DNA from: a virus
Lineage: Duplodnaviria; Heunggongvirae; Uroviricota; Caudoviricetes
Length of the DNA stretch: 64,000 nucleotides
Virus record (IMG/VR): IMGVR_UViG_2687453424_000001
Strand: one strand, 5' to 3'
Part shown: one piece after another, positions 1-61,435 of the stretch
How the letters are laid out: the number at the start of each line of letters is the position of its first letter
Numbering within the stretch: position 1 is the first letter of the stretch
Notes under the pieces: model-generated
Told to the model about the DNA's origin: nothing
What the model saw: only the letters and a program-made list of their open reading frames with translations
Database searches by the model: none
Program-made: the position numbers and the translations under genes

Positions 1-3000
1 NNNNNNNNNNNNNNNNNNNNNNNNNNNNNNNNNNNNNNNNNNNNNNNNNNNNNNNNNNNNNNNNNNNNNNNNNNNNNNNNNNNNNNNNNNNNNNNNNNNN
101 NNNNNNNNNNNNNNNNNNNNNNNNNNNNNNNNNNNNNNNNNNNNNNNNNNNNNNNNNNNNNNNNNNNNNNNNNNNNNNNNNNNNNNNNNNNNNNNNNNNN
201 NNNNNNNNNNNNNNNNNNNNNNNNNNNNNNNNNNNNNNNNNNNNNNNNNNNNNNNNNNNNNNNNNNNNNNNNNNNNNNNNNNNNNNNNNNNNNNNNNNNN
301 NNNNNNNNNNNNNNNNNNNNNNNNNNNNNNNNNNNNNNNNNNNNNNNNNNNNNNNNNNNNNNNNNNNNNNNNNNNNNNNNNNNNNNNNNNNNNNNNNNNN
401 NNNNNNNNNNNNNNNNNNNNNNNNNNNNNNNNNNNNNNNNNNNNNNNNNNNNNNNNNNNNNNNNNNNNNNNNNNNNNNNNNNNNNNNNNNNNNNNNNNNN
501 NNNNNNNNNNNNNNNNNNNNNNNNNNNNNNNNNNNNNNNNNNNNNNNNNNNNNNNNNNNNNNNNNNNNNNNNNNNNNNNNNNNNNNNNNNNNNNNNNNNN
601 NNNNNNNNNNNNNNNNNNNNNNNNNNNNNNNNNNNNNNNNNNNNNNNNNNNNNNNNNNNNNNNNNNNNNNNNNNNNNNNNNNNNNNNNNNNNNNNNNNNN
701 NNNNNNNNNNNNNNNNNNNNNNNNNNNNNNNNNNNNNNNNNNNNNNNNNNNNNNNNNNNNNNNNNNNNNNNNNNNNNNNNNNNNNNNNNNNNNNNNNNNN
801 NNNNNNNNNNNNNNNNNNNNNNNNNNNNNNNNNNNNNNNNNNNNNNNNNNNNNNNNNNNNNNNNNNNNNNNNNNNNNNNNNNNNNNNNNNNNNNNNNNNN
901 NNNNNNNNNNNNNNNNNNNNNNNNNNNNNNNNNNNNNNNNNNNNNNNNNNNNNNNNNNNNNNNNNNNNNNNNNNNNNNNNNNNNNNNNNNNNNNNNNNNN
1001 NNNNNNNNNNNNNNNNNNNNNNNNNNNNNNNNNNNNNNNNNNNNNNNNNNNNNNNNNNNNNNNNNNNNNNNNNNNNNNNNNNNNNNNNNNNNNNNNNNNN
1101 NNNNNNNNNNNNNNNNNNNNNNNNNNNNNNNNNNNNNNNNNNNNNNNNNNNNNNNNNNNNNNNNNNNNNNNNNNNNNNNNNNNNNNNNNNNNNNNNNNNN
1201 NNNNNNNNNNNNNNNNNNNNNNNNNNNNNNNNNNNNNNNNNNNNNNNNNNNNNNNNNNNNNNNNNNNNNNNNNNNNNNNNNNNNNNNNNNNNNNNNNNNN
1301 NNNNNNNNNNNNNNNNNNNNNNNNNNNNNNNNNNNNNNNNNNNNNNNNNNNNNNNNNNNNNNNNNNNNNNNNNNNNNNNNNNNNNNNNNNNNNNNNNNNN
1401 NNNNNNNNNNNNNNNNNNNNNNNNNNNNNNNNNNNNNNNNNNNNNNNNNNNNNNNNNNNNNNNNNNNNNNNNNNNNNNNNNNNNNNNNNNNNNNNNNNNN
1501 NNNNNNNNNNNNNNNNNNNNNNNNNNNNNNNNNNNNNNNNNNNNNNNNNNNNNNNNNNNNNNNNNNNNNNNNNNNNNNNNNNNNNNNNNNNNNNNNNNNN
1601 NNNNNNNNNNNNNNNNNNNNNNNNNNNNNNNNNNNNNNNNNNNNNNNNNNNNNNNNNNNNNNNNNNNNNNNNNNNNNNNNNNNNNNNNNNNNNNNNNNNN
1701 NNNNNNNNNNNNNNNNNNNNNNNNNNNNNNNNNNNNNNNNNNNNNNNNNNNNNNNNNNNNNNNNNNNNNNNNNNNNNNNNNNNNNNNNNNNNNNNNNNNN
1801 NNNNNNNNNNNNNNNNNNNNNNNNNNNNNNNNNNNNNNNNNNNNNNNNNNNNNNNNNNNNNNNNNNNNNNNNNNNNNNNNNNNNNNNNNNNNNNNNNNNN
1901 NNNNNNNNNNNNNNNNNNNNNNNNNNNNNNNNNNNNNNNNNNNNNNNNNNNNNNNNNNNNNNNNNNNNNNNNNNNNNNNNNNNNNNNNNNNNNNNNNNNN
2001 NNNNNNNNNNNNNNNNNNNNNNNNNNNNNNNNNNNNNNNNNNNNNNNNNNNNNNNNNNNNNNNNNNNNNNNNNNNNNNNNNNNNNNNNNNNNNNNNNNNN
2101 NNNNNNNNNNNNNNNNNNNNNNNNNNNNNNNNNNNNNNNNNNNNNNNNNNNNNNNNNNNNNNNNNNNNNNNNNNNNNNNNNNNNNNNNNNNNNNNNNNNN
2201 NNNNNNNNNNNNNNNNNNNNNNNNNNNNNNNNNNNNNNNNNNNNNNNNNNNNNNNNNNNNNNNNNNNNNNNNNNNNNNNNNNNNNNNNNNNNNNNNNNNN
2301 NNNNNNNNNNNNNNNNNNNNNNNNNNNNNNNNNNNNNNNNNNNNNNNNNNNNNNNNNNNNNNNNNNNNNNNNNNNNNNNNNNNNNNNNNNNNNNNNNNNN
2401 NNNNNNNNNNNNNNNNNNNNNNNNNNNNNNNNNNNNNNNNNNNNNNNNNNNNNNNNNNNNNNNNNNNNNNNNNNNNNNNNNNNNNNNNNNNNNNNNNNNN
2501 NNNNNNNNNNNNNNNNNNNNNNNNNNNNNNNNNNNNNNNNNNNNNNNNNNNNNNNNNNNNNNNNNNNNNNNNNNNNNNNNNNNNNNNNNNNNNNNNNNNN
2601 NNNNNNNNNNNNNNNNNNNNNNNNNNNNNNNNNNNNNNNNNNNNNNNNNNNNNNNNNNNNNNNNNNNNNNNNNNNNNNNNNNNNNNNNNNNNNNNNNNNN
2701 NNNNNNNNNNNNNNNNNNNNNNNNNNNNNNNNNNNNNNNNNNNNNNNNNNNNNNNNNNNNNNNNNNNNNNNNNNNNNNNNNNNNNNNNNNNNNNNNNNNN
2801 NNNNNNNNNNNNNNNNNNNNNNNNNNNNNNNNNNNNNNNNNNNNNNNNNNNNNNNNNNNNNNNNNNNNNNNNNNNNNNNNNNNNNNNNNNNNNNNNNNNN
2901 NNNNNNNNNNNNNNNNNNNNNNNNNNNNNNNNNNNNNNNNNNNNNNNNNNNNNNNNNNNNNNNNNNNNNNNNNNNNNNNNNNNNNNNNNNNNNNNNNNNN

Positions 3001-3083
3001 NNNNNNNNNNNNNNNNNNNNNNNNNNNNNNNNNNNNNNNNNNNNNNNNNNNNNNNNNNNNNNNNNNNNNNNNNNNNNNNNNNN
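1..3083. other. assembly gap (N run)
   Basis: uninterrupted run of N. Confidence 0.99.
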
Positions 3084-3311
3084 CTTTAGTGACTTGACCT
3101 TATCTGGCAAGGTATAAGTTAAAACAACCTTCTGGTCTTGCTCAACAACATTAACTAACTGCAAGAAATTGGGATCAGCTTGCTTTAATTCGTTTAGCTC
3201 ACTTAATTGGTCGTAGCGAAATTGATTGTGATTGAGTTCGAGGATTAGCTTGTTCCCTTGTCGTTTGAACGTGCCAACCTCAATATTCAATAGCTGGTTT
3301 GCTTTACTCAT
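3084..3311 (-). CDS. hypothetical protein, 5' part only (76 codons, runs into the gap); downstream gene of the conjugation operon
   Basis: Minus-strand ATG at 3309-3311 overlaps the VirB4 stop (ATGAGTAA arrangement). Translation MSKANQLLNIEVGTFKRQGNKL... stays open to the contig edge at 3084. Low-GC bacterial codon usage. No family recognised. Confidence 0.5.
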
Positions 3312-5167
3312 TTAAAGTCCCTCCTTCTTCTTCGGTGGTGGTCAAGGCGTCAATTTCACTCGGTGTCAGGATCACACGCTTTTGATAATCCGGTTGTCCG
3401 GCGGTCTCACGGTTGTATTTTTCTTGGTAAGCTTCTGGGTCGATTAACCGCAATTCTTCTTCGGTTAGCTCCACCCGCATAAAAGCGCGTTGGCTACCAT
3501 AGATCATCAGGGCTTCACCTTGTCTACGGCGTTCTAGTAACTTCTTTTCCTTATCCGAGAACGTCATTCTTAACTTAGTAATGACATCATCAACACCTTT
3601 ACCATCAAGGCCAAAGAATACCTTGGTATAGGAGTTCCCAATAATGGCTTCACCAATGTTCTGCCCAGTATCTGTCGTTCCTTCAATCACATCTTGAATT
3701 TGTTGCGTTCCGGCAATCGCCCCGGCATTGTACTTTCTAAAGCGCTTATAGGCTTGATGGAAAAAGGTAGCGGCCGCTTTATGCAAGGTCAGAAAATGAA
3801 ATTCGTCAACAAACAATTTCTTGCGGCTATGCCGATCTTTCGTGATTTCGTCCCACAAATATTGAAAAGTATTCAGGTAGGCTGCTGATTGGACTTCCTG
3901 TTCACTTTGCAGCGGTTTTAAATCAAAGGAAATGATCTTGCCCTTTAAGTTGACGTTGGTGTGTCCGTCAAATAGGCTGTTAGAACCATGGGTATAACTG
4001 CCTAAGATGTAGTAGAAGTCTTTAACCCGACTGAATTTGTCAGCGTCCTTATCAGCTAGTTTTTCCAACTCGTCATAGACATTGGATAAGGTCGGCCACT
4101 GATCGTCTTTAATCTCTTTTAAGCGGCTATATTTCAAAACGCCACTGTTGACATAAGCCTGTTTAACAACATCATCAAGGATTGCCAATTCAACTTGGGT
4201 AATCCCGGTTTTGAGGACTTCAAAGAATCCCTTTAGTCGTTGAATTTTATCTTTGACTAGTAAATCAAGGTTTGTGACCGCTTCATCAGCGCTTAGGATT
4301 TCTTCGGAAAAGATTTGTAGCGGGTTAATTTTGTACTTCGCATTGGAAGTTAAATGCAAGACTGCCCCACCCAAGGCTTCAACAATCTTGGTATATTCAT
4401 TTTCTGGATCAATAATGTAGAGTTGATAGTCTTGAATGGCATAGCGTAGGATTTTTTGGATCATATAGGTGGTCTTGCCGACCCCACTGGTACCAATAAC
4501 CACCATGTTTTGGTTCAACGTTTTGTTGCGATCCAACATATCCACGGCAATTAAGCTGTTGGTGTCTTTGTTAACCCCTTCAATATCGCTTCTAGGCTTT
4601 AAGTCCAAAATCTCGGCGTCATCAAAAGGAAACATGCTGCTGGCAACTTCGGTATTACTTTCCTTATACGTATAATCGCCTAATAGATTTTCGTTGATTG
4701 GCATAGTAGACCAAAAACTTTGAAAAGTTGCTTTAACGGGCACTAAGGGCTTCATTTGTAGCTTAATCAGTGTATTTTTAACGTTGTCAGTTAAATCGTC
4801 TAGTTCCGCTAAACTGTTAGCCCGCAGATAAACCAGCATATGTTGGTACACAAATGTGGTAGAATTATCGAGGTATTTATCTAGTTGCATATTGGCCGAA
4901 TCAATATAATTTTGCAGAATTTTCTTTTTATACGGGTCGAACGTATTTAGCTTCTGCGCTTCCTTATTTTGGATCGTCTTTTTGTAATAGGTAATCATTG
5001 AATTGTTACTGGCGCTGTCGATATATTGCACAATATCGATAACGCCTTTTTTGCGCTTTAATTCTGATAGCCAGTTGCCGTGAACTCGCTTGGGATAGTC
5101 AGCAATCGCTAACACCCGGATAAAGTTCTCCCCCGACTGCACGTAGGTGGGGTACTGTTCCCAACTG
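3304..5167 (-). CDS. VirB4-family type IV secretion / conjugal transfer ATPase (TrsE/TraE/PrgJ-like), 5'-truncated
   Basis: Bacterial part of minus-strand ORF 3304..5364. Walker A GTSGVGKT is encoded at 4471-4494; Walker B-like LFVDEFHF at about 3795-3818; AGTQ motif follows. Stop TAA at 3304-3306. The N-terminal ~65 residues of the listed ORF are read from avian repeat DNA and are not part of the protein. Confidence 0.8.
3319..3324 (-). promoter_or_regulatory. Shine-Dalgarno-like GGAGGG, 7 nt upstream of the downstream-gene ATG
   Basis: Minus strand reads GGAGGGACTTTAAATG. Confidence 0.45.
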
Positions 5168-5172
5168 CAGGT
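5165..5172. other. chimeric junction between bacterial DNA and avian repeat DNA, at a CTGCAG (PstI) site
   Basis: Homology to the avian repeat copy at 45160-45365 runs up to about 5171. Beyond it the sequence is low-GC bacterial coding DNA. No N gap at the junction. Confidence 0.7.
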
Positions 5173-6130
5173 AGTCTCATGTCCCTTTGATGGCTGGAAC
5201 CCCAAGAGGTGTAGCATGGAGACAAGAAAGATGAGGAGGGTGGATGCCCCCTGCATGAAGGGGAAACTTGGATTTCTGGAGGTCCTCTGTGTGACAGGGA
5301 ACAGGTGGGGTTGGCTTTTGTGACTGAGGATCAGAGGAGTGGATAAGAGGGACATTGTGCTCACAGTTACAAACTACTTGCTCAGGGAGGGGAAACAGAA
5401 AAGGTCTTTTGTCAGCACCTGAGGAAGCCTCCAGGCTAATGAGCAGGTACCTTGCAGGTAATTGCCCTGGTGGTCCCTGGCCATGCAAAGCAACAGGGTG
5501 CAACAATGTGGAGGGTCTTGGCACAACCGGTTAACACAGGTGCAGGGCGGGCCAACAAGGGTGATGCTCCCCTGGAAAAGCTGCTCAGGATGTGATCATC
5601 AGTGTCAGCCTTGGCTGTCATGAGCATGCAATAGTGGGGACTCAGATGCTAAAGGGCATGAGGAAGGCCAGCAGCAGAGAACAGACTCTGGACTTACTTG
5701 GGGACAATTCCAGGAGTTTCCATGGGAAGCGGCTCTGATGGTGAAGGAGCATGAGCAAGTCTGCTAACGATCCCTGAGCCTGGAATACCTGGAGGGCTTC
5801 CAAGGTCCACCAGGGCTTTTGCCACCTTTCTGAATGCCGGTCAGGCTCCTGAGGGCTTTAGCACAGTTGCAGAGCACCAGCGCATTCTGGAATGGCCGGT
5901 GTTATTCCTCAGCCTTGCCAGAGCCTGCTGAGGCCTCTGCCTCCATCTAGAATGCTTGGGGAGATTCTGCAGGATTGGTGCAGACTGCCAGGGCCCTGCC
6001 ATGTTCTGCAATGTTGGGTGTCCTTCCAAGCGTGCTGGTGCAAGCACTTCCCTGGGCATTGCTGGAACCCTCCAGTTTCCCAGCAGGGCCTTCGCCGCCT
6101 TCCAGTAGCCTCGATGTGCTGCCGCGGTGC
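5173..6130. repeat. avian satellite-like repeat (family A), inverted relative to the copy at 44291-45400
   Basis: Translations of the two regions are near-identical on opposite strands (e.g. LEASSGADKRPFL.PLPEQVVCNCEHNVPL; GRTPNI.E.GRALAVCTNPAE.PQAF). Degenerate ~60 bp internal periodicity. Confidence 0.6.
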
Positions 6131-6139
6131 TGTGGTTTA

Positions 6140-6317
6140 AGTCCAGTCAGTAATTCAGAACCACGTAGTCGCTCGCTCACTCTCCCCCCTTCCTCCCCCC
6201 CACTCCCAGAGGGATGGGAAGGAGAATCGAAAAAATATAACTCGCACAGGTTGAGATAAGAACAGTCAAGTAACTAAGGAATAGCACAAACCACAGCCGC
6301 TACCACCAGTAATAATA
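6140..6317 (+). mobile_element. partial LTR (family L), 5' portion, truncated by CR1
   Basis: Same sequence pattern as the start of the LTR at 31296-31836 (gtggtttaa..cagtcag ... ctaccaccagtaataatag). Confidence 0.5.
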
Positions 6318-6376
6318 GTAGAATCATAGAATCGTAGAATCATAGAATAGTTAGGATGGGAAAGGACCTTAAGACC
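6318..6376 (-). mobile_element. CR1 LINE 3' terminus (ATTCTRTG-type octamer repeats), continuing into the gap
   Basis: Plus strand reads tagaatcatagaatcgtagaatcatagaat then ttaggatgggaaaggacc; minus-strand translation GLKVLSHPNYSMIL matches the CR1 3' end seen at 60430-60476. Confidence 0.7.
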
Positions 6377-8004: not shown

Positions 8005-9515
8005 GTCCTCGTGGCCCTCCTCTGGACTTGTTCCAACAGTTCCATGTCCTTTTTATGTTGAGGACACCAGAACTGCACACAATACCCAAGTGAGGTCTCA
8101 CGAGAGCAGAGTAGTGGGGCAGGATCACCTCCTTCGACCTGCTGCTCACGCTCATTTTGATGCAGCCCAGGATACGGTTGCTTTCTGGGCTGCGAGCACA
8201 CACTGCAGCTGGCTCATGTTCATTTTTCATCGACCAACACCCCCAAGTCTTTCTCCACAGGGCTGCTCTGGATCTCTGCTATCCCCAACCTGTAGCTGTG
8301 CCTGGGATTGCTCCGACCCAGGTGTAGGACCTTGCACTTGGCATGGTTAAACTTCATCAGGTTGGCATCAGCCCACCTCACAAGCGTGTCGAGGTCCCTC
8401 TGCATGGCATCCCTTCCCTCCGGCGTATCAACCGAACCACACAGCTTGGTGTCATCGGCAAACTTGCTGAGGGCGCACTCAATCCCACTGTCCATGTCAG
8501 CGACAAAGATGTTGAACAAGACCGATCCCAACACTGATCCCTGAGGAACACCACTTGTTACCGGTCTCCAGCTGGACATCGAGCCATTGACCACAACTCC
8601 TTGCGTGCGGCCATCCAGCCAGATCTTTATCCACCGAGTGGTCCACCCATCAAATTGATGTCTCTCCAATTAGAGACAAGGATGTCATGTCGGACAGTGT
8701 CGAACGCTTTGCACAAGTCCAGGTAGATGACCTCAGCTGCTCTACCCCTATCCATCAGTTCCATAGCCCCATCATAGAAGGCCACCAAATTGATCAGGCA
8801 GGATTTCCCCTTTGTGAAGCCATGCTGGCTGTCACCAACCACCTCCTTGTTTTTCATGTGCCTTAGCATGCCTTGCAGGAGAATCTGCTCCAAGAGTTTG
8901 CCAGGCACAGAGGTGAGACTGACTGCTCTGTAATTCCCCTGATCATCCATTTTCCCCTTCTTGAAAACAGGGGCTATATTTCCCTTTTCCCAGTCATCGG
9001 GAGCTTCACCTGACTGCCATGATCTTTCAAATATGATGGACTGTGTAAACTTCATTTGCCAGCTCCTTCAGGACCCGTAGATGGATTTCATTAGGTCCCA
9101 TGGACATGTGCACGTTCAGGTTCTTAAGATGGTCTTGAACCAGATCCTGTCTTACAGTGGGCCCAAGGTCTTCATTCTCACAGTCCCTGCTTCTGCCTTC
9201 CAAGACTTGGGTGATGTGGTCAGAGCCTTTGCCAGTGAAGACTGAGGCAAAGAAGTAATTCAGAACCTCAGCCTTCTCCAAATCCAGGGTAGCCAGTTCT
9301 CCTGCTAGTTTCTGGAGGGGGCCTATGTTGTCCCTAGTCTGTCTTTTATTTGCTACATACCTATAGAATCCCTTCCTGTTATCTTTCACATCCCTAGCCA
9401 AGTTTAATTCTAACTGGGCCTTAGCTTTCCTAACCTGGTCCATAGCTTCTCAGACAACATCCCTGTATTCTTCCCAGGCTGCCTTCCACCATCCCCTAAA
9501 GTTCAAATGCTTTTT
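8005..9515 (-). mobile_element. CR1 LINE ORF2 fragment (reverse transcriptase domain and C-terminal region), degenerate
   Basis: Minus-strand ORFs 9027..9443, 8627..9055 and 8220..8669 carry RT motifs ([29 protein letters not shown]; [13 protein letters not shown]; KCKVLHLG). 8005-8201 encodes [27 protein letters not shown]. Frameshifts between the pieces. Confidence 0.8.
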
Positions 9516-16788: not shown

Positions 16789-17180
16789 AGAATACAGCTG
16801 AACAATGGACATGTGAGCAATCCCAGCTGTTTGGTTTTAGCCAAACTCTGACTTAAGTTGCAAGGTCTGAATTCAAGTTACTCAGGCTGTGAGGCCTAGC
16901 CTTAGGTTACTAAAGGACAGTTACGTGCAGTAGAATAAGGAACTTGGCATTTGCTCAAGGCTAACAAGATGTGGGAGCGGGATGGTGAAACTGCAAGTTA
17001 TGTGAGAAAGGTAGCGAATGGATAATTTTAGCTAGCTTGTTATCTGCTTCAAAATGTGTGGACTGCACTTCTGAGCCAATCACAATCTATATTGGTTACG
17101 TCTAGCCAATAGCAGTTCAATTTCTGGAAGCATATACTGTAGCTACTGTAGCTACTGTGCTACGACAGTGGTCTGTGGAC
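16789..17180 (+). mobile_element. possible LTR-like segment between env and pol remnants
   Basis: Position after the env stop; CCAAT-box-like motifs (ccaatcacaatc, agccaatagc). Boundaries not defined. Confidence 0.25.
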
Positions 17181-17244
17181 CCCATTGGCCATTGAGACTA
17201 CGATGGAATGTGCGCAAGTCCTTTTTCAGGCTTTGTCTGAGCGA

Positions 17245-17660
17245 GCTGCTGAAATTTGCCCAAATCACTGTAATAGTCATTCGCACATCCCTGGACTCCT
17301 GACTGAAGGTAGCAATAGTGCAGACCGTGTTGCACAAGGTCTGCCAGTTCCTGACTGTTGTGCTCCAGTTTTTATGCGCTATTTACATGTCACGGTTGAT
17401 ACCTGTAGCAGTGTCATTTTGGCTACAGCACAACGCAAGCAAGACGCCAAAGCAGCCATTTTGCATTGGCGCGAGGTCATGGCGATTTTGGGAGTCCCTA
17501 GCCAGATCAAGACCGACAATGGTCCAGCATATTCAAGTCAACTGGTGGCTTCATTTTTATGACAGTGGGGCATTGAGCATAAGACCGGTTGTCCTTATAA
17601 CAGCACTGGCCCAGCTATCGTCGAACGCGCGCACCGGACTCTGAAAGCTCGCCTCGTGTG
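17245..17660 (+). mobile_element. ERV pol remnant: RNase H C-terminus and integrase catalytic core, frameshifted
   Basis: ORF 17185..17562 has GNSADRVA (RNase H end), HVTVDTCSS and IKTDNGPAYSS (the two Asp motifs). The next frame at 17563-17640 gives [28 protein letters not shown] (the Glu motif). Confidence 0.65.
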
Positions 17661-30047: not shown

Positions 30048-30597
30048 TTCAGGCTGGTCCCCTTTCCTGGTTTAGCAGTAGCAGTCATTTTTTCTACTGG
30101 TGCAGTGCTGTGTTTTGACTTTCGACCTGGGAATAATACTGATAAAGCTGATGTTTTCAGTTGTGGGTCAGAATGTTTACCCTGACCAAGGACTTTGTGA
30201 GTCTCATGCTGTGCCAGGGAGGAGGAGAAGCCGGGAGGAAGCAGAGACAGGACACCTGACCCAAACTAGCCAAAGAGGTATTCCATACCACAGCACGTCA
30301 TGCCCAGGATGTAGAATGGAGAGGGCCCGGAAGGGCTAGATGACTGCGGGGTGAGGTACCGGTTGGTGAGCGATTGTATTCTCTTCCTTGTTATTTCCTT
30401 TATCATTATTACTATTAGTGGTAGCAGTAGTGATTTGTGTTATACCTTAGTTATTAAACTGTTCTTATCTCAACCCGTGGGAGTTGCATTCTTTCGATTC
30501 TCCTCCCCATCCCTCCAGGAGCGGAGGGAAGAAAGGTGTGGGGGGGAAGTAGACTGCGTGGTTCTGATTTATGGCCTGGGCTTAAACCACAACATCC
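30048..30597 (-). mobile_element. LTR (family L), copy 1, minus orientation
   Basis: Reverse complement matches the copy at 31296-31836 end to end; ORF 30100..30339 and ORF 31589..31786 (minus) give near-identical peptides (HA.PGRR.SREEA.TGHLTQ.SQRGIPYHSTSCPG). Confidence 0.65.
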
Positions 30598-31295: not shown

Positions 31296-31836
31296 AGAAC
31301 TGTCGTGGTTTAAACCCAGTCAGCCATCAATCAGCCACACAGTCTCTCCCCCCACTTCTTTCCCTCCCCCTGCTCCCGGAGGGATAGGAAGGAGAATTGA
31401 AAGAATGTAACTCCCACAGGTTGAGGTAAGAACAGTTTAGCAACTAAGGTATAACACAAATCACTACTGCTACCACCAATAATAATAGTGATAAAGGAAA
31501 TAACAAGGGAAGAGAATACAACACCTCACCACCCGCCAACCGATAACTCACCCCCACCCAGCAGTGATCCAGCCCTTCCGGGTAACTCTCAGTTACCTCC
31601 CGGGCATGACGTGCTGTGGTATGGAATACCTCTCTGGCTAGGTTGGGTCAGGTGTCCTGTCCCTGCTTCCTCCCGGCTTCCCCTCCTCCCTGGCAGAGCA
31701 TGAGACTCAGAAAGTCCTTGGTCAGACCAAACATCGGTGTTATCAGCTCTGTTCCCAGGCTGAAAGTCAAAAACACAGCGCTGCACCAGGTACTAAGGAG
31801 AAAAAATGACTGCTACTTCTGAACCAGGACAGCACC
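31296..31836 (+). mobile_element. LTR (family L), copy 2, plus orientation
   Basis: Starts tgtcgtggtttaaaccc and ends ..gaaccaggaca; partial copies at 6140-6317 and about 39480-39980. Confidence 0.65.
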
Positions 31837-31839
31837 AAG

Positions 31840-32280
31840 TGACACCAAGTGACCCTCCAGACCTACAACTGCCCCCCAAAGTGACACCCCAGATCCACAA
31901 CTGCCTCCCCAGTTACCTGAAGGAGATTCCTCAGACCCACATCCGCCCCAAGTGACCCCACAGTGACCCCACATACCCACAACTGCCCCCCAAGTGACCC
32001 ACCCACACCCACAACTGCCCCCAGTGACCCCAAAGAGACCTCTCAGACCCACAGCTGATGCCCAAATGATACCCCAGACCTACAACTGCCATCCAAGTGA
32101 CCCTCCAGACCCACAAGTGCCCCCCACGTGACCCCAAAATAACTCCTCAGACCCACAACTGACCTACAAGTGATCCCAAGTGACCCCCATTACCTACAAC
32201 TGCCCCCAAGGTGACCACCAAGTGACCCCCCAGACCCACAACTGCCCCCCCAGTGACCTCAAAGAGACCGCTCAGAACAT
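31840..32280. repeat. tandem repeat, degenerate ~41 bp unit (cagacccacaactgccccccaagtgacccc), about 11 copies
   Basis: Periodic repetition seen directly; minus-strand ORF 31813..32052 is its translation. Confidence 0.7.
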
Positions 32281-38838: not shown

Positions 38839-38949
38839 TTTTCCAACTCAGACTGAATCAAGCCTTGAACAATTTGCTCTGACCCTGTTCCTGATGGGTT
38901 AGACTTGAGAACTCCTGGGGTCCTTTCCAACCTCTGCTCTCTTATGATC

Positions 38950-39345
38950 CAACAATGATGGGTTTATGAAGAGTCACAAAAATGCTCCAAGGGCTGGAGC
39001 ACATCTCTGATGAAGACAGGCTGAGAGAGCTGGGGATGTTCAGCCTGGAGAAGACAAGGTTCCAGGGATACATCTTAGCAAGCTGCCCATTTCTAAACAC
39101 GGCCTACAAGAAATCTGGACAGGGGCTTTTTACAAGTGTGTGCAATTACAGGAGAAGGGGAGATGGCTTTGAGCTGAAAGAGGGGGATTTAGATCAGACA
39201 TTAGGAAGGAATTCTTCCCTGTGACAGTGGTGGGACACTGGCACAGGGTGCCCAGAGAAGCTGTGGCTGCCCCGTCCCCGGCAATGTTCAAGGCAAGGTT
39301 GGACACAGGGGCTTGGAGCAACCTGCTCTAGTGGACCACCATAAA
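38950..39345 (+). mobile_element. CR1 LINE 3' portion (ORF2 C-terminus), plus orientation, lacking the terminal octamer repeats
   Basis: ORF 38982..39224 GLEHISDEDRLRELGMFSLEK and, in the following frame, VVGHWHRVPREAVAAPSPAMFKARLD. Confidence 0.65.
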
Positions 39346-39479
39346 ACACCTCCATAACACCCAGAAACACCTGTGAAACACCTCAAAAATAACCCCAAAC
39401 CACTCCTACAACTGCCGAAGGACACCTTGAAACATCCCCAGAGCCCCCAAAACACCATTGGCATCCTCCAAACCATTCA

Positions 39480-39980
39480 GGTCCTTGTCTTCCCCCTGCT
39501 GTGATGCCGTGGCATAAATCAAACCCTAGACACAAAATCCCTGTTCTTGACCCTAATTTTAACCCTCACTGATTTTTATAATGTTATAATATTGTAATAG
39601 AATGTAAGTAAATTATCTATTATAATAATAGAAATGCTTGTCTGTCTATATTACTATTATAAATTATACACTAATATAAATGCTTTTCAGTCCAGTGGGC
39701 CCATGACACCTCAGGTCATAGAAACTGGCCTGAAGGGATGCGTTGCTGCTTGGGTTGGGCTGGGTGTCGCTCAGAACATGCTGAACAATTGCATTGGGCA
39801 TCACTGTCGCTATAGGTCCTTTCTTTTCCCTTTTGGTTCTGTATCTCTCCCCTTGTTGTTTCCATTCTTATTAATAACAATAACACTAATATTACATTGT
39901 GCTTGATTTCAGTTCCTGACCTGTTCTCATCTCCACCTGTGGGTTTCACATTGTTCCCATTCTCCCCCCTATCCCACGCG
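39480..39980 (-). mobile_element. partial LTR (family L-like), minus orientation, diverged
   Basis: Reverse complement shares blocks with the LTR at 31296-31836 (gggaacaatgtgaaacccacaggtggagatgagaacag ... aataagaatggaaacaacaagg). Confidence 0.4.
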
Positions 39981-40462
39981 GGTGCTGAGCGAGCGGCTGC
40001 TGGTGCTGAGTTCCCGGCTGGGTTTCAACACTGCCCCTGTCCTGGCCCCTTTGCTGTGGCAGCAGGGGCTGGACGTTTGCACTCTTGGAGCTGGGCTCTT
40101 TGTATGGGCACGCAGCTGGAAGCAGCATTCTTTGGCTCAGGAAGCGCAGCTCCCCAGTGTTGCTGGGGCTGGGGCAGTGCTTGCCAAGGGCAGGGGAGGC
40201 CCAGCAACAGCTCCTGTCCTGGCCCTGCTGCTGGGGGAGCAGAGGGGCTCCCGCGGGCATTGCCGCAGTCAGGATTGCGCAGGTGTGCCCAGAGCCCACC
40301 AGCTCCTTCCCACCTTGCGCAATGCCCGCTGGGCTTCTGGGCTGTGCCTGCGCCTGCCAGGGCCTTTGTCACCTTCCAGAATGCATTGGCAGAGCCCAGC
40401 AGAGCACTGGAGCCTTGCGCAATGCCCGCCGCTGGCCTGGCCTTTACCAGAGCCCAGCGGCA
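39981..40462. repeat. satellite-like repeat (family A; tgcgcaatgcccgc / cctttaccagagc motifs), running into the gap
   Basis: Same motifs as 44330-44560. Confidence 0.5.
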
Positions 40463-44290: not shown

Positions 44291-45400
44291 TACCATTGGT
44301 CATTAATAAGGCCCTCCTCACGCTGCCAGCAGGGGCCTGCGCTCTGCCCCTGCAGGGCTGCTGCAGGGTTACCAGAACCCGCCAGCCCCATTGCCCCCTG
44401 CCGCAATCCCTGCCAGGCTTCTGCAGGCCTTGCCAGAGCCCTCCTGGGGTTTGCCACCTCCTGCAATGCCCGCTCGGCTCCCACTGCCTTTACCAGTGCT
44501 CCGGGCCCCTGCAACACCTTCAGGAGCCGCCAGGCATTGAGGAAGGTGGCAGGGTCTGGTGGGATCTGGCACAACCTGTGCAGGCTTGACGGCGTTCTGC
44601 AAGACCGCACGGACCCTGGGGTGCCCATGGAACCTGGGTGTGCGTTCTAGACAGAGGCTGCAGCCTTGGGGGCCTCCAGCAATGCCCGCAGCAGCACATC
44701 GGGGCTGCTGGAAGGGGGCAAAGGTCCTTGTGGGCTCTGGCAATGCCCATGGAAGTGCTTCCACCAGCACGCTTGGAAGGACTCCCAACATTCCAGAATG
44801 TGGCAGGGCCCTGGCAGTCTGCACCAACCCAGCAGAAGCTCCTCAAGCATTCCGGATGGAGGCAGAGGCCTCAGCGGGCTCTGGCAAGGCTGAGGAATAA
44901 CACCAGGCATTCCAGAATGCAGCAGGTGCTCTGGAACTGTGCTAAAGCCCTCAGGAGCCTGTCTGACATTGTGGAAGGTGGCAAAAGCCGTGATGGACCT
45001 TGGAAGCCCTCCGCATTGTTGCACCCTGTTGCTTTGCCTGGCCAGGGAATGCTGAACAGGGAATGCAGTTCCATAGCAACCTGCTCATTAACCTGGAGGC
45101 TTCCTCAGGTGCTGACAAAAGACCTTTTCTGTTGCCCCTCCCTGAGCAAGTAGTTTGTAACTGTGAGCACAATGTCCCTCTTACTGACTCCTCTAACCCT
45201 CAGTGACAAAAGCCAACCCAACCTGTTCCCTGTCACATTGAGGACCTCCAGAAATCCAAGCTTCCCCTTCATGCAGGGGGCATCAACCCTCCTCATCCTT
45301 CTTGTCTCCATGTTACACCTCCTGAGGTTCCAGCCATCAAAGACACATGAGATTATCTGTACTATTCTCCCCTTACAGCGCTGGATCTAAGGAGCAGCTA
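44291..45400. repeat. satellite-like repeat (family A) with ~60 bp degenerate tandem units
   Basis: cattccagaatg-type cores at 44789, 44848, 44908 and 44967 (spacing 59-60 bp); inverted copy at 5173-6130. Confidence 0.6.
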
Positions 45401-59924: not shown

Positions 59925-60476
59925 GAACATGAGCCAGCTGTGTGCAGTCGCTTGGGGTATTGTGTGCAGTTCTGGTGTCCTCAACATCAAAAGGACATGG
60001 AACTGTTGGAGCAAGTCCAGAGGAGGGCCACAAGGATGATCAGGGGACTGGAGCACCTCCCATATGAAGACAGGCTGAGGAAGTTGGGGCTGTTCAGCCT
60101 GGAGAAGAGAAGGCTGCGTGGAGACCTCATAGCAGCCTTCCAGTATCTAAAGGAGGCCTATTAATATGCTGGAGAGGGCCTCTTCACTAGGGACTGTAGT
60201 GATAGGACAAGGGGTAACATGCTCAAACATAAACAGAGGAAGTTGAGATTGGATATAAGGAAGAAGTTCTTGACTGTAAGGGTGGTGAGGCACTGGAAGA
60301 GGTTGCCCAGGGAAGTCGTGAATGCTCCATCCCTGGCAGTGTTCAAGGCCATTTTGGATAGAGCCTTGGGTGACATGGTTTAGTGGGAGGTGTCCCTGCC
60401 CATAGCAGGGGGGTTGGAACTAGATGGTCTTAAGGTCCTTTTCAACCCTAACTATTCTATGATTCTACAATTCTAA
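59925..60476 (+). mobile_element. CR1 LINE 3' portion (ORF2 C-terminus and 3' end with octamer repeats)
   Basis: ORF 59940..60164 [67 protein letters not shown]; then VVRHWKRLPREVVNAPSLAVFKA; terminal ctattctatgattctacaattcta. Confidence 0.8.
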
Positions 60477-60599
60477 GGCCATGCCGAGCCTCTCTTGTGC
60501 AGCCCAGACTCATCCGAGTCAGAAGTACAAATAGTGAACTTTACAATCAAGTTGGAATTTATCTGCTATCCCTTGTGATTATCAGAGCTGGACAAAGCA

Positions 60600-60679
60600 C
60601 TGCTTCAGAGCAAACCTGACTCCCATCCAACCTGGCCTTGAACACTGCGAAGGATGGGGCAGCCACAGCTTCTCTGCTG
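60600..60679 (-). mobile_element. CR1 3'-end-like fragment, minus orientation
   Basis: catccaacctggccttgaacactgcgaaggatggggcagccacagcttctctg. Confidence 0.4.
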
Positions 60680-60757
60680 GTTAGGGTTCTCTGCTGGGTT
60701 AGGGTTAGGGTTAGGGTTTTAGGGGGTTAGGGCGTTAGGGGGTTAGGGCGTTAGGGT
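60680..60757 (+). repeat. short degenerate telomere-like repeat (TTAGGG / TTAGGGGG / TTAGGGC units) abutting vector sequence
   Basis: ggttagggtt...gggttagggttagggttagggttttagggggttagggcgttaggg seen directly. Confidence 0.75.
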
Positions 60758-60763
60758 AAAAAG

Positions 60764-61106
60764 CTCGCTTTCAGCACCTGTCGTTTCCTTTCTTTTCAGA
60801 GGGTATTTTAAATAAAAACATTAAGTTATGACGAAGAAGAACGGAAACGCCTTAAACCGGAAAATTTTCATAAATAGCGAAAACCCGCGAGGTCGCCGCC
60901 CCGTAACCTGTCGGATCACCGGAAAGGACCCGTAAAGTGATAATGATTATCATCTACATATCACAACGTGCGTGGAGGCCATCAAACCACGTCAAATAAT
61001 CAATTATGACGCAGGTATCGTATTAATTGATCTGCATCAACTTAACGTAAAAACAACTTCAGACAATACAAATCAGCGACACTGAATACGGGGCAACCTC
61101 ATGTCC
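60764..61106 (-). other. phage lambda cos region (right end joined to left end across cosN), as carried in BAC/fosmid/cosmid vectors
   Basis: Reverse complement matches, from memory, the lambda left end (gggcggcgacctcgcgggttttcgctatttatgaaaattttccgg...) and right end (...cctttccggtgatccgacaggttacg); the cohesive-end junction lies at about 60890-60902. Confidence 0.85.
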
Positions 61107-61126
61107 GAGCTCGCGAGCTCGTCGAC
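61107..61126. other. synthetic polylinker (GAGCTC-TCGCGA-GCTC-GTCGAC: SacI/NruI/SacI/SalI sites)
   Basis: Restriction-site string between lambda-derived and F-derived sequence. Confidence 0.6.
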
Positions 61127-61435
61127 AGCGACACACTTGCATCGGATGCAGCCCGGTTAACGTGCCGGCACGGCCTGGGTAACCAGGTATTTTGTCCACA
61201 TAACCGTGCGCAAAATGTTGTGGATAAGCAGGACACAGCAGCAATCCACAGCAGGCATACAACCGCACACCGAGGTTACTCCGTTCTACAGGTTACGACG
61301 ACATGTCAATACTTGCCCTTGACAGGCATTGATGGAATCGTAGTCTCACGCTGATAGTCTGATCGACAATACAAGTGGGACCGTGGTCCCAGACCGATAA
61401 TCAGACCGACAACACGAGTGGGATCGTGGTCCCAG
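61127..61435. other. F-plasmid-derived vector backbone next to sopC, with the first sopC centromere repeats (about 61352-61435)
   Basis: tgggaccgtggtccca inverted-repeat cores in direct repeats (gaccgataatcagaccgacaacacgagtgggatcgtggtcccag), recalled as the sopC partition site of pBeloBAC11-type vectors. Confidence 0.75.

Follow-up and report, generated by a model that had tools for sequence, protein, structure and literature searches.

Lactobacillaceae plasmid DNA joined without a gap to avian repeat DNA in the Escherichia coli MC1061(phi24B) draft: most probably a non-biological chimera of contaminants

The stretch of DNA analysed here (the window, 64,000 nucleotides) contains a point at which bacterial coding DNA passes directly into bird repeat DNA, which raises the question of whether this contact records a transfer of DNA from a bacterium to a vertebrate or was created during the production of the sequence. 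The window belongs to LN877770.1 (5,027,063 bp; GCA_001405275.1), an entry cited as MC1061 (PMC10203433). The paper on MC1061(phi24B) describes 5,027,118 bp in 15 scaffolds, for which a 454 mate-pair library of 8 kb was sequenced and Newbler served as the assembler (PMC4651098); the draft in LN877770.1 is a Newbler assembly of a 454 Titanium 8-kb mate-pair library, with raw 454 reads under PRJEB9491. The record is the draft of E. coli MC1061(phi24B) and not an avian one. At least 70 kb of its scaffold sequence consists of repeats from a bird, DNA of a Lactobacillaceae plasmid and cloning vector, and the bird DNA, the Lactobacillaceae plasmid and the BAC/fosmid vector are all contaminants foreign to MC1061. 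The initial annotation, made from the sequence alone, had framed the region as a bird scaffold contaminated by bacteria; this framing has to be abandoned, as the record is an E. coli draft and both partners of the junction are contaminants. The contig that carries the junction is 3293 bp long and flanked by N runs in a record labelled E. coli. It falls under the Conterminator definition of cross-kingdom contamination or a chimeric contig, which asks for an alignment longer than 100 nt that is more than 90% identical to sequence from a different kingdom and lies in a contig shorter than 20 kb between N runs.

A gap-free bacterial/avian junction had been proposed for 5150-5190, and it was located at 5167/5168 (junction 1), where plasmid and bird DNA are contiguous with no gap. 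The breakpoint is blunt, as seen both in the alignments and in the base composition. CpG observed/expected switches exactly at this position, from 0.99 on the left to 0.23 on the right, and the GC content is 41.5% on the left vs 53.3% on the right. The microhomology amounts to 0 nt with respect to the plasmid parent, and 0-3 nt are possible with respect to the true avian parent.

On the left side, sequence comparison identifies window positions 3084-5167 as conjugative-plasmid DNA of Lactobacillaceae, with 95.0% identity to NZ_CP044235 (L. plantarum) and 99.90% identity (2 mismatches in 2084) to the metagenome contig Ga0214925_100860. All plasmid alignments end at 5166/5167. The main feature of this fragment is a truncated minus-strand gene for a type IV secretion ATPase of the VirB4/TrsE family (3304..5167), whose membership follows from its domains and from the Walker A motif GTSGVGKT. 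On the chimeric ORF, PF03135 (CagE/TrbE/VirB N-terminal) reaches 23.3 bits (cutoff 21), covering only profile positions 46-200 of 204, and PF19044 (P-loop NTPase domain) scores 60.8 bits. Compared with Ga0214925_100860 and NZ_CP044235, codons 1-51 and 2 nt are missing, as are the ribosome-binding site and the promoter; the gene is therefore not complete with its own start codon, and its downstream synteny is intact. The start of the next conjugal-transfer gene (3084..3311, minus strand, 76 codons) is collinear with the NZ_CP044235 CDS FEM49_RS16500; the contig terminates within it, and this fragment gave no Pfam match. The nucleotide identity of virB4/trsE (3304..5167) to many plasmids is 88-95%, and the substitutions relative to divergent relatives are mostly synonymous. 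Within the Gram-positive VirB4/TrsE ATPases (MPF_T, MOBQ plasmids; Lactiplantibacillus, Levilactobacillus, Pediococcus), the bacterial half is unexceptional. Many of these proteins share 98-99% protein identity with it, and their plasmids have the downstream conjugal-transfer protein, lysozyme, 205-aa protein and thioredoxin in common with it. Unlike them, it is cut at codon 52 by the artificial junction, and the N-terminus of its deposited protein is false, being translated from bird DNA. No further plasmid-like DNA was found in the rest of the window.

On the right side, positions 5168-6376 consist of CpG-depleted avian repeat DNA. A repeat copy designated family A (5168..6127) shows 86-93% identity, in reverse complement, to a paralog at 44686..45359: segments 5168-5515 and 5791-6127 are homologous to 45359-45007 and 45012-44686, respectively, and the 275-bp segment 5516-5790 is missing in the paralog. 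The paralog had already been pointed out at 45160-45365, and the homology is in fact wider than that interval. It begins exactly at 5168, and the paralog continues unbroken beyond the position that matches the break. Further to the right, the 3' end of a CR1 retrotransposon, consisting of an octamer microsatellite and a hairpin region, was detected with TRF on the minus strand (6314..6376, with the octamer array at 6314-6351) and resembles 60426-60475; an ATTCTRTG motif has been described for the CR1 3' microsatellite (PMC8665684). The non-bacterial DNA also contains TTAGGG arrays, and its CR1 fragments elsewhere in the scaffold give RVT_1 matches. For the CR1 reverse-transcriptase fragments, every named best match is to Aves, with 70-87% identity (83-87% for the top ones). 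Judged by these CR1 retrotransposon features of its sequence and the TTAGGG arrays, the non-bacterial DNA is avian. A scan of JGI metagenome contigs with the avian repeat adjoining the break, aimed at an intact bird locus, returned 0 matches. A protein search with the 115-aa avian ORF adjoining the break gave nothing significant, two avian ORFs had no identical entry on look-up, and an avian contig matched none of 5,426 complete E. coli genomes.

The two sides are read as one frame. The minus-strand ORF 3304-5364 comprises 686 codons, of which 65 are avian-derived, one is the junction codon (TG/C) and 620 are bacterial, in agreement with the fusion of 65 avian-derived residues to the VirB4 frame reported in the initial annotation. 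The part in bird DNA (5168..5364, minus strand, 65 codons and 2 nt) is a spurious 5' extension of the ORF. In the deposited annotation the start is the ATG at 5355, which yields the 683-aa CUQ97495.1, present in nr as "protein TrsE [Escherichia coli]" with its first 62 residues derived from bird DNA. An exact protein look-up places this ATG-5355 form solely in LN877770.1, and the same look-up with the GTG-5364, ATG-5256 and ATG-5217 starts found nothing.

Two further gap-free joins bear on the origin of junction 1. In LN877770.1, if the loci follow the orientation of the record, junction 1 would fall at about 3,071,073/3,071,074 (window 5168/5167), junction 2 at about 3,080,145/3,080,146 and the vector junction at about 3,015,483/3,015,484. 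Junction 2 is the other end of the ~5.25-kb plasmid piece and lies 3.9 kb to the left of the window, where the plasmid meets bird repeats within the thioredoxin gene. Its sequence, CATCAGATTT/CCAACTC, has TTT as the sole ambiguity and contains no 6-bp palindrome. The left bird flank of the plasmid piece matches 38840-39303 and 60676-59719, and does not match 45360 onward, the continuation of the right flank's paralog, which is a proxy and not the true locus. The two plasmid contigs are set apart by 5316 N, where two reference plasmids have 1494 bp; the 99.9%-identical relative is collinear across this gap. Both contigs cross their plasmid-bird junctions without a contig break. As a counterpoint to an artefact, one collinear plasmid fragment with gap-free bird DNA on either side is also the architecture of a true insertion. 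Since the contigs run unbroken through both junctions, few or no reads extended the plasmid past the breaks; unless the coverage was very low, unbroken contigs would point less to a single rare ligation than to a chimeric molecule that was clonal, or to bird DNA cloned with a true insertion in it. A relaxase/oriT-mediated event in the manner of T-DNA was considered for the plasmid piece and rejected: oriT is expected beside the mobQ relaxase gene, and both breaks fall inside virB4 and the thioredoxin gene, kilobases (~2.5 kb) from mobQ.

The presence of vector elsewhere in the scaffold, also noted initially, is evident at 60758..61435, where a BAC/fosmid vector backbone fragment shows 100% identity over 678 bp to vector-bearing records and lambda. 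Lambda cos (60758-61105) passes directly into a polylinker and the 43-bp repeats of F-plasmid sopC, which extend up to 61435, as in backbones of the pBeloBAC11/pCC1 type. Sequence comparison places the gap-free junction between degenerate telomere-like bird repeat and vector at 60757..60758. This point is internal to the vector, 66 nt from its loxP and thus away from the cloning site, and the sequence TTAGGGT/AAAAAGC contains no 6-bp palindrome. The loxP, NotI and CAT of the reference copies are absent in the window because the contig turns to bird DNA 66 nt short of loxP. The vector is foreign both to the bird and to the MC1061 chromosome, yet it is joined to bird DNA without a gap; artificial gap-free joins are therefore present in this scaffold. 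Neither 454 paired-end linkers nor loxP were found at or near the junctions.

The most conspicuous feature of junction 1 is that the break falls at the centre of a CTGCAG hexamer (5165..5170), in which comparison with the parents assigns CTG to the plasmid and CAG to the bird. The initial annotation was correct in stating that the avian homology ends within this hexamer, and it took the site, together with the vector, as favouring a cloning or assembly chimera. In restriction-site cloning, bacterial and avian PstI fragments, or fragments with compatible ends, would have been ligated. For such a ligation, each parent must contain CTGCAG or a different site that leaves a TGCA-3' overhang. At the corresponding position the 99.9%-identical plasmid Ga0214925_100860 reads CTGAAC, with no TGCA, CTGCAG occurs in 0 of 117 plasmid relatives, and the avian paralog, a proxy for the true avian parent, reads GTACAG. 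The hexamer was therefore made by the join itself (CTG/CAG). A CTGCAG centred exactly on the break does favour the restriction route, as a CTGCAG that spans the junction is expected by chance in 0.17% of simulated random plasmid-bird joins. However, the parental homology changes over in mid-hexamer, so that the parents do not both share the six bases. Some 6-bp palindrome spans 6.7% of the random joins, which gives a chance expectation of ~19% for at least one among three junctions, and both junction 2 and the vector junction are without a palindromic hexamer. Furthermore, the library DNA was sheared and not digested (PMC4651098). The probability left to a restriction-ligation is close to negligible, and on these sequence comparisons the PstI-like site is a coincidence, a by-product of joining CTG to CAG. 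More generally, finding a hexamer of restriction type at a junction counts for little as evidence until its presence in both parents has been verified.

It is also conceivable that the contact exists in silico only, the assembler or a finishing step having abutted bacterial and bird contigs with no molecule or read carrying the junction. The region is indeed badly assembled, the size of the plasmid gap being off by 3.8 kb; the contig ends match repeat boundaries, and the 15 scaffolds were apparently merged into a single record. Nevertheless, no sequence at the break is common to its two sides (0 nt with respect to the plasmid parent), and the overlap-based Newbler thus has nothing to join on. 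In addition, there are three such gap-free junctions, whereas contigs elsewhere are separated by N runs, one of just 20 N, which indicates that contigs were not simply butted together. Such a misjoin is improbable. Even less credence can be given to a genuine and very recent end-joining insertion of the ~5.25-kb Lactobacillaceae plasmid piece into repeat-rich, possibly subtelomeric bird DNA, which, perhaps as a BAC/fosmid clone, would then have entered the E. coli data as a contaminant. Consistent with this are the presence of the plasmid as one collinear fragment between gap-free bird flanks, the little or no microhomology at the junctions, as end-joining would give, and the unbroken passage of the contigs across both junctions; if it were true, a bona fide bacterium-to-vertebrate DNA integration would have been found by accident. 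Against it, the piece has only 2 differences in 2084 nt from the free plasmid, 620 open codons and a CpG observed/expected of 0.99; taking this 99.9% identity, the open frames and the CpG value into account, nothing suggests that it has resided in a vertebrate genome. Because the left flank lacks homology to the paralog of the right flank from 45360 onward, the bird flanks appear not to reconstruct one locus, as far as the paralog can serve as a proxy. A junction of this type is also seen at the vector fragment of the scaffold, the breaks lie away from oriT, the record is E. coli and not an animal, and the chimeric ORF is on record in one contig only. To our knowledge, there is no mechanism or precedent for transfer from Lactobacillaceae to a bird. 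Contamination nearly always accounts for matches between kingdoms that exceed 90% identity (PMC7218494). The initial annotation had named independent long reads or PCR products across the junction, with host-like flanks on both sides, as the observation that would speak against a chimera. Junction 2 superficially supplies such flanks, but a plasmid with bird DNA at either end is of no significance here, since the sequenced organism is the source of neither partner. The initial preference for a chimera over horizontal transfer is thus retained, without its restriction-site cloning route.

Junction 1 is very probably a non-biological chimera within contaminant contigs of the E. coli MC1061(phi24B) draft, produced by in-vitro blunt-end joining. 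The ligation step and its timing are parts of this explanation that we infer. The read set contained three foreign DNAs, namely repeat-rich bird DNA, a ~5.25-kb fragment of a Lactobacillaceae plasmid and BAC/fosmid vector backbone. The plasmid fragment would have been joined at both ends to unrelated bird fragments without homology, most likely through in-vitro blunt-end ligation of sheared, end-polished DNA. This may have happened during cloning of the contaminating material, as a fosmid-type chimeric insert, or in one of the blunt ligation steps of the 454 paired-end procedure. Chimeric pairs make up 1.5-6.7% of Cre-loxP mate-pair libraries, and the 454 protocol includes two ligation steps (PMC3253782). 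Newbler would then have assembled contigs through the chimeric reads, the low coverage of the contaminants offering no contradiction, and mate pairs would have chained the contigs into a scaffold with sized N gaps; contaminant DNA is sometimes incorporated within contigs and scaffolds (PMC7218494). Finally, the annotation pipeline would have extended the truncated virB4/trsE through 62-65 codons of bird DNA.

On this reading the junction is an artefact, which in itself teaches nothing about biology. Its value lies in database hygiene, as LN877770.1 serves as a public E. coli MC1061 reference. Entries of this kind may lead to false calls of horizontal transfer, to bird reads being classed as E. 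coli, or vice versa, in metagenomics, and to misleading homology searches.

Comparable cases include an Acidithiobacillus segment at the end of the human alt scaffold NT_187580 and ~4 kb of E. coli DNA inserted in chromosome X of C. elegans, both embedded contamination (PMC7218494). As in these Conterminator cases, a segment with more than 90% cross-kingdom identity lies in a short contig that has N runs at its ends or continues directly into host sequence, and the foreign segment has passed into the public record and the protein set. Unlike in those cases, the labelled organism, E. coli, supplies neither partner of the junction: two contaminants are fused to each other, and vector is fused to bird DNA. 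The chimeras known from mate-pair circularisation and blunt cloning (PMC3253782) are similar in that unrelated fragments from a sheared, end-polished library are joined without homology or restriction sites. Classical Cre-loxP chimeras bear a loxP linker at the joint, in contrast to these junctions, which have none; the join would therefore go back to fragments ligated directly to each other, or to cloning at an earlier stage. The Wolbachia insertions of insects and nematodes, which are cited in the FCS-GX paper (PMC10246020), likewise show bacterial DNA between animal flanks with non-homologous junctions. Such integrants derive from germline-associated endosymbionts, have been confirmed by independent reads or PCR, and are usually decayed. 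The present donor, in contrast, is a food- or gut-type Lactobacillaceae plasmid, undecayed, in an E. coli record, with vector chimeras alongside.

The gap-free join of plasmid and bird DNA at 5167/5168 (junction 1) is confirmed; it is an artefact of a known kind, and its sole importance lies in the curation of LN877770.1/GCA_001405275.1 and of the nr entry CUQ97495.1. An exact-product look-up places the 683-aa product starting at the ATG at 5355 at one location among public assemblies, LN877770.1 (GCA_001405275.1; 5,027,063 bp), an accession cited elsewhere as the GenBank entry for E. coli MC1061 (PMC10203433). The MC1061(phi24B) genome is described as 5,027,118 bp in 15 scaffolds (BioProject PRJEB9491), obtained by whole-genome pyrosequencing with an 8-kb mate-pair library on the GS-FLX Titanium, assembled with the August 2010 R&D version of Newbler and annotated with RAST (PMC4651098). 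The nominal organism of the record is a laboratory E. coli, MC1061(phi24B), to which bird DNA and Lactobacillaceae plasmid alike are foreign; one of the window's avian contigs was compared with 5,426 complete E. coli genomes and matched none. The initial annotation erred in framing the sequence as a bird scaffold: LN877770.1 is a contaminated E. coli draft. In nr, the chimeric ORF (3304-5355, minus strand) appears as CUQ97495.1, 'protein TrsE [Escherichia coli]', 683 aa, whose residues 1-62 are translated bird DNA and which falls into one cluster with 2,718 authentic VirB4 proteins of Lactobacillaceae.

The window is a scaffold of ten contigs, each 0.5-4.7 kb long, with N runs of 20-5645 bases between them (62% N overall), and junction 1 is contained in the first contig, 3084-6376. 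About 200 Lactobacillaceae conjugative plasmids match the plasmid portion of this contig, 3084-5167. The top PLSDB match is L. plantarum NZ_CP044235 (95.0% identity), and every alignment stops at query position 2083/2084, i.e., 5166/5167 in the window. Its minus strand encodes a VirB4/TrsE-type ATPase (Pfam PF03135 and PF19044, Walker A motif GTSGVGKT), followed by only the beginning of the next conjugal-transfer gene. The plasmid on metagenome contig Ga0214925_100860 (locus L074) is 99.90% identical to this portion, with 2 mismatches in 2084 nt. Divergent relatives differ mostly at synonymous sites (75 synonymous vs 6 non-synonymous codons for NZ_CP044235), and the VirB4/TrsE half is an ordinary bacterial gene under selection, cut 155 nt (51 codons plus 2 nt) past its start codon. 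At 3304-3330, the frame in both the window and the 99.9% relative extends 8 codons beyond the NZ_CP044235 stop and overlaps the start of the next gene by 8 nt.

The presence of CTGCAG at 5165-5170 on this join is confirmed. The 99.9% relative reads CCCAACTG/AACGGG across the break, which gives CTGAAC at the site; among 117 relatives spanning the breakpoint, taken from species-representative genomes and metagenome contigs and including this one, the far side is (A/G/T)TT in all 117 and CTGCAG occurs in none. The avian paralog (44686-45359, a family A repeat) reads AGTA/CAGATAATC, i.e., GTACAG; the change from plasmid to bird homology thus falls between 5167 and 5168. Judging from these parental sequences, the hexamer is a product of the join itself. 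Microhomology amounts to 0 nt on the plasmid side, and up to 3 nt is possible if the actual bird locus reads CTG at the break. In simulated random plasmid-bird joins, some 6-bp palindrome spans the join in 6.7% of cases and is centred on it in 1.6%, while CTGCAG specifically spans 0.17%. Taking into account that any restriction-type site would be noticeable and that three foreign junctions lie in the neighbourhood, the coincidence is unremarkable, and the hexamer loses the value of a PstI or cloning clue originally attached to it. The ORF at 3304-5364 comprises 686 codons, namely 65 bird-derived codons, as already counted in the initial annotation, the junction codon and 620 plasmid codons; the bird-derived extension is biologically meaningless.

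From 5168 on, the contig shows reverse-complement homology to 45359-45007 and then to 45012-44686, and the paralog continues unbroken beyond the position equivalent to junction 1. At the junction, GC content rises from 41.5% to 53.3% and the CpG observed/expected ratio falls from 0.99 to 0.23, the latter step coinciding, in 200-nt bins, with the very boundary between the bin that ends at 5167 and the one that starts at 5168. The bird origin of the non-plasmid DNA is supported by a CR1 3' octamer microsatellite at 6314-6351, a motif reported for nearly all avian CR1s (PMC8665684), by reverse transcriptase and integrase fragments elsewhere in the scaffold, and by a CR1 reverse transcriptase fragment for which every named best match comes from a bird (Strigops, Grus, Limosa, Mycteria, Melopsittacus, Gallus). 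Frameshifted CR1 ORF2 (RVT_1) fragments at 8223-9449 (minus strand) and 52532-53255 form direct repeats of 88-95% identity, again with only birds among the best named protein matches, and an open frame at 17152-17559 (plus strand) carrying a retroviral integrase core domain (Pfam rve, E = 2.6e-8) is an endogenous-retrovirus fragment within bird DNA.

A second plasmid-bird join (junction 2) lies to the left of the window. The left-edge N run (1-3083) corresponds to 5316 N in the record, behind which stands a 3039-bp contig (locus L149). The initial 1672 nt of this contig are a collinear continuation of the same plasmid, with an NlpC/P60 lysozyme, a 205-aa protein and the start of a thioredoxin gene, at up to 97.5% identity to L. 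brevis pLBN-3. In two reference plasmids, the distance between the two plasmid contigs is 1494 bp, an interval over most of which the 99.9% relative is collinear; the scaffold gap estimate is thus off by about 3.8 kb, so that the gap sizes of this scaffold are unreliable. The plasmid piece is a single collinear fragment of about 5,250 bp (2084 + 1494 + 1672) with bird DNA on both sides. Junction 2 (L149 19257-19261, in scaffold coordinates some 3.9 kb to the left of where the window begins) falls gap-free inside the thioredoxin gene and reads CATCAGATTT/CCAACTCAG, with only a 3-nt TTT ambiguity, no palindrome and a CpG-depleted bird repeat beyond. The left bird flank matches 38840-39303 (79%) and 60676-59719 (95.8%), and has no match to the continuation of the right flank's paralog; on this paralog proxy only, the two flanks do not appear to rebuild one interrupted locus. 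No further plasmid-like DNA is present within the window.

Vector DNA, as the initial annotation had stated, is found elsewhere in the scaffold: 60758-61435 matches a BAC/fosmid backbone at 100% identity, comprising lambda cos (60758-61105), then the polylinker and F sopC 43-bp repeats. Reference vector copies carry NotI, loxP and 66 nt of lambda sequence directly to the left, with the CAT gene nearby; the window instead has a degenerate telomere-like bird repeat, gap-free within contig 59719-61435. The join at 60757/60758 thus lies 66 nt from loxP and not at the cloning site. Such a join cannot be natural in either a bird or MC1061, which proves that artificial gap-free joins occur in this same scaffold.

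A true insertion of a plasmid fragment into a bird genome would account for two-sided, collinear, non-homologous junctions. Against it stand the 99.9% match of the plasmid part to a free plasmid, its undepleted CpG and its intact reading frames, the non-collinear flanks, the parallel vector chimera, and the distance of the breaks from mobQ, the relaxase gene next to which one would expect oriT; we know of no mechanism for such an event and consider it highly improbable. The preference for a chimera over horizontal transfer is upheld; of the original interpretation, the chimera and the vector stand, whereas the PstI clue and the bird-scaffold framing do not. A purely in-silico join is unlikely, if somewhat less so: since the two sides share no sequence, an overlap assembler needed at least one read containing the junction, and elsewhere contigs are set apart by N runs, one as short as 20 N. 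Ligation of PstI or compatible ends deserves practically no credence despite the hexamer, because it needs a site in both parents and is thereby excluded for the plasmid parent.

The most economical explanation is that fragments, sheared and end-polished, were physically ligated end to end. It may have taken place in the contaminating material itself, for example a fosmid-type library from mixed bird and Lactobacillaceae DNA, which would bring vector, bird DNA and plasmid together and give unbroken contigs through both junctions. Alternatively, it may have occurred in the 454 paired-end protocol with its two ligation steps; related Cre-loxP libraries contain 1.5-6.7% chimeric pairs (PMC3253782). 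Neither a linker nor a loxP remnant is present to mark the ligation step in the sequence. Short contigs and the unassembled 1.5-kb plasmid stretch suggest low contaminant coverage, which would leave chimeric reads uncontradicted, and chimeric mate pairs could account for both the scaffolding and the erroneous gap estimate. Contaminant DNA inside contigs or scaffolds of another organism is documented (PMC7218494; PMC10246020).

The remaining bird DNA contains further repeats. Degenerate (TTAGGG)n arrays at 53685-54018 (about 51 copies, 83% matches, TTTTAGGG/CGTTAGGG variants) and 60702-60756 have a 61-nt stretch in common at 90% identity, and a C-rich complex tandem array at 31835-32262 shows nested periods of about 31, 42, 72, 83 and 114 bp with a unit like CCAAGTGACCCCCCAGACCCACAACTGCCCCC. 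The segments 30113-30547 and 31347-31772, 80-92% complementary in three collinear blocks with about 0.8 kb between, resemble 6128-6319 in the first contig and probably represent an LTR-like bird repeat present twice in inverted orientation. The start of contig 38839-40462 lies no more than 4 nt from the site that corresponds to the junction 2 breakpoint on the bird side (L149 19258), and the left-flank contig stops (L149 20626) exactly at the point matching the start of contig 59719-61435 (95.8% identity, 958 bp). These contig ends at homology boundaries suggest that the assembler split contigs at the edges of repeats and that the contigs of bird DNA may be assemblies of repeat families.
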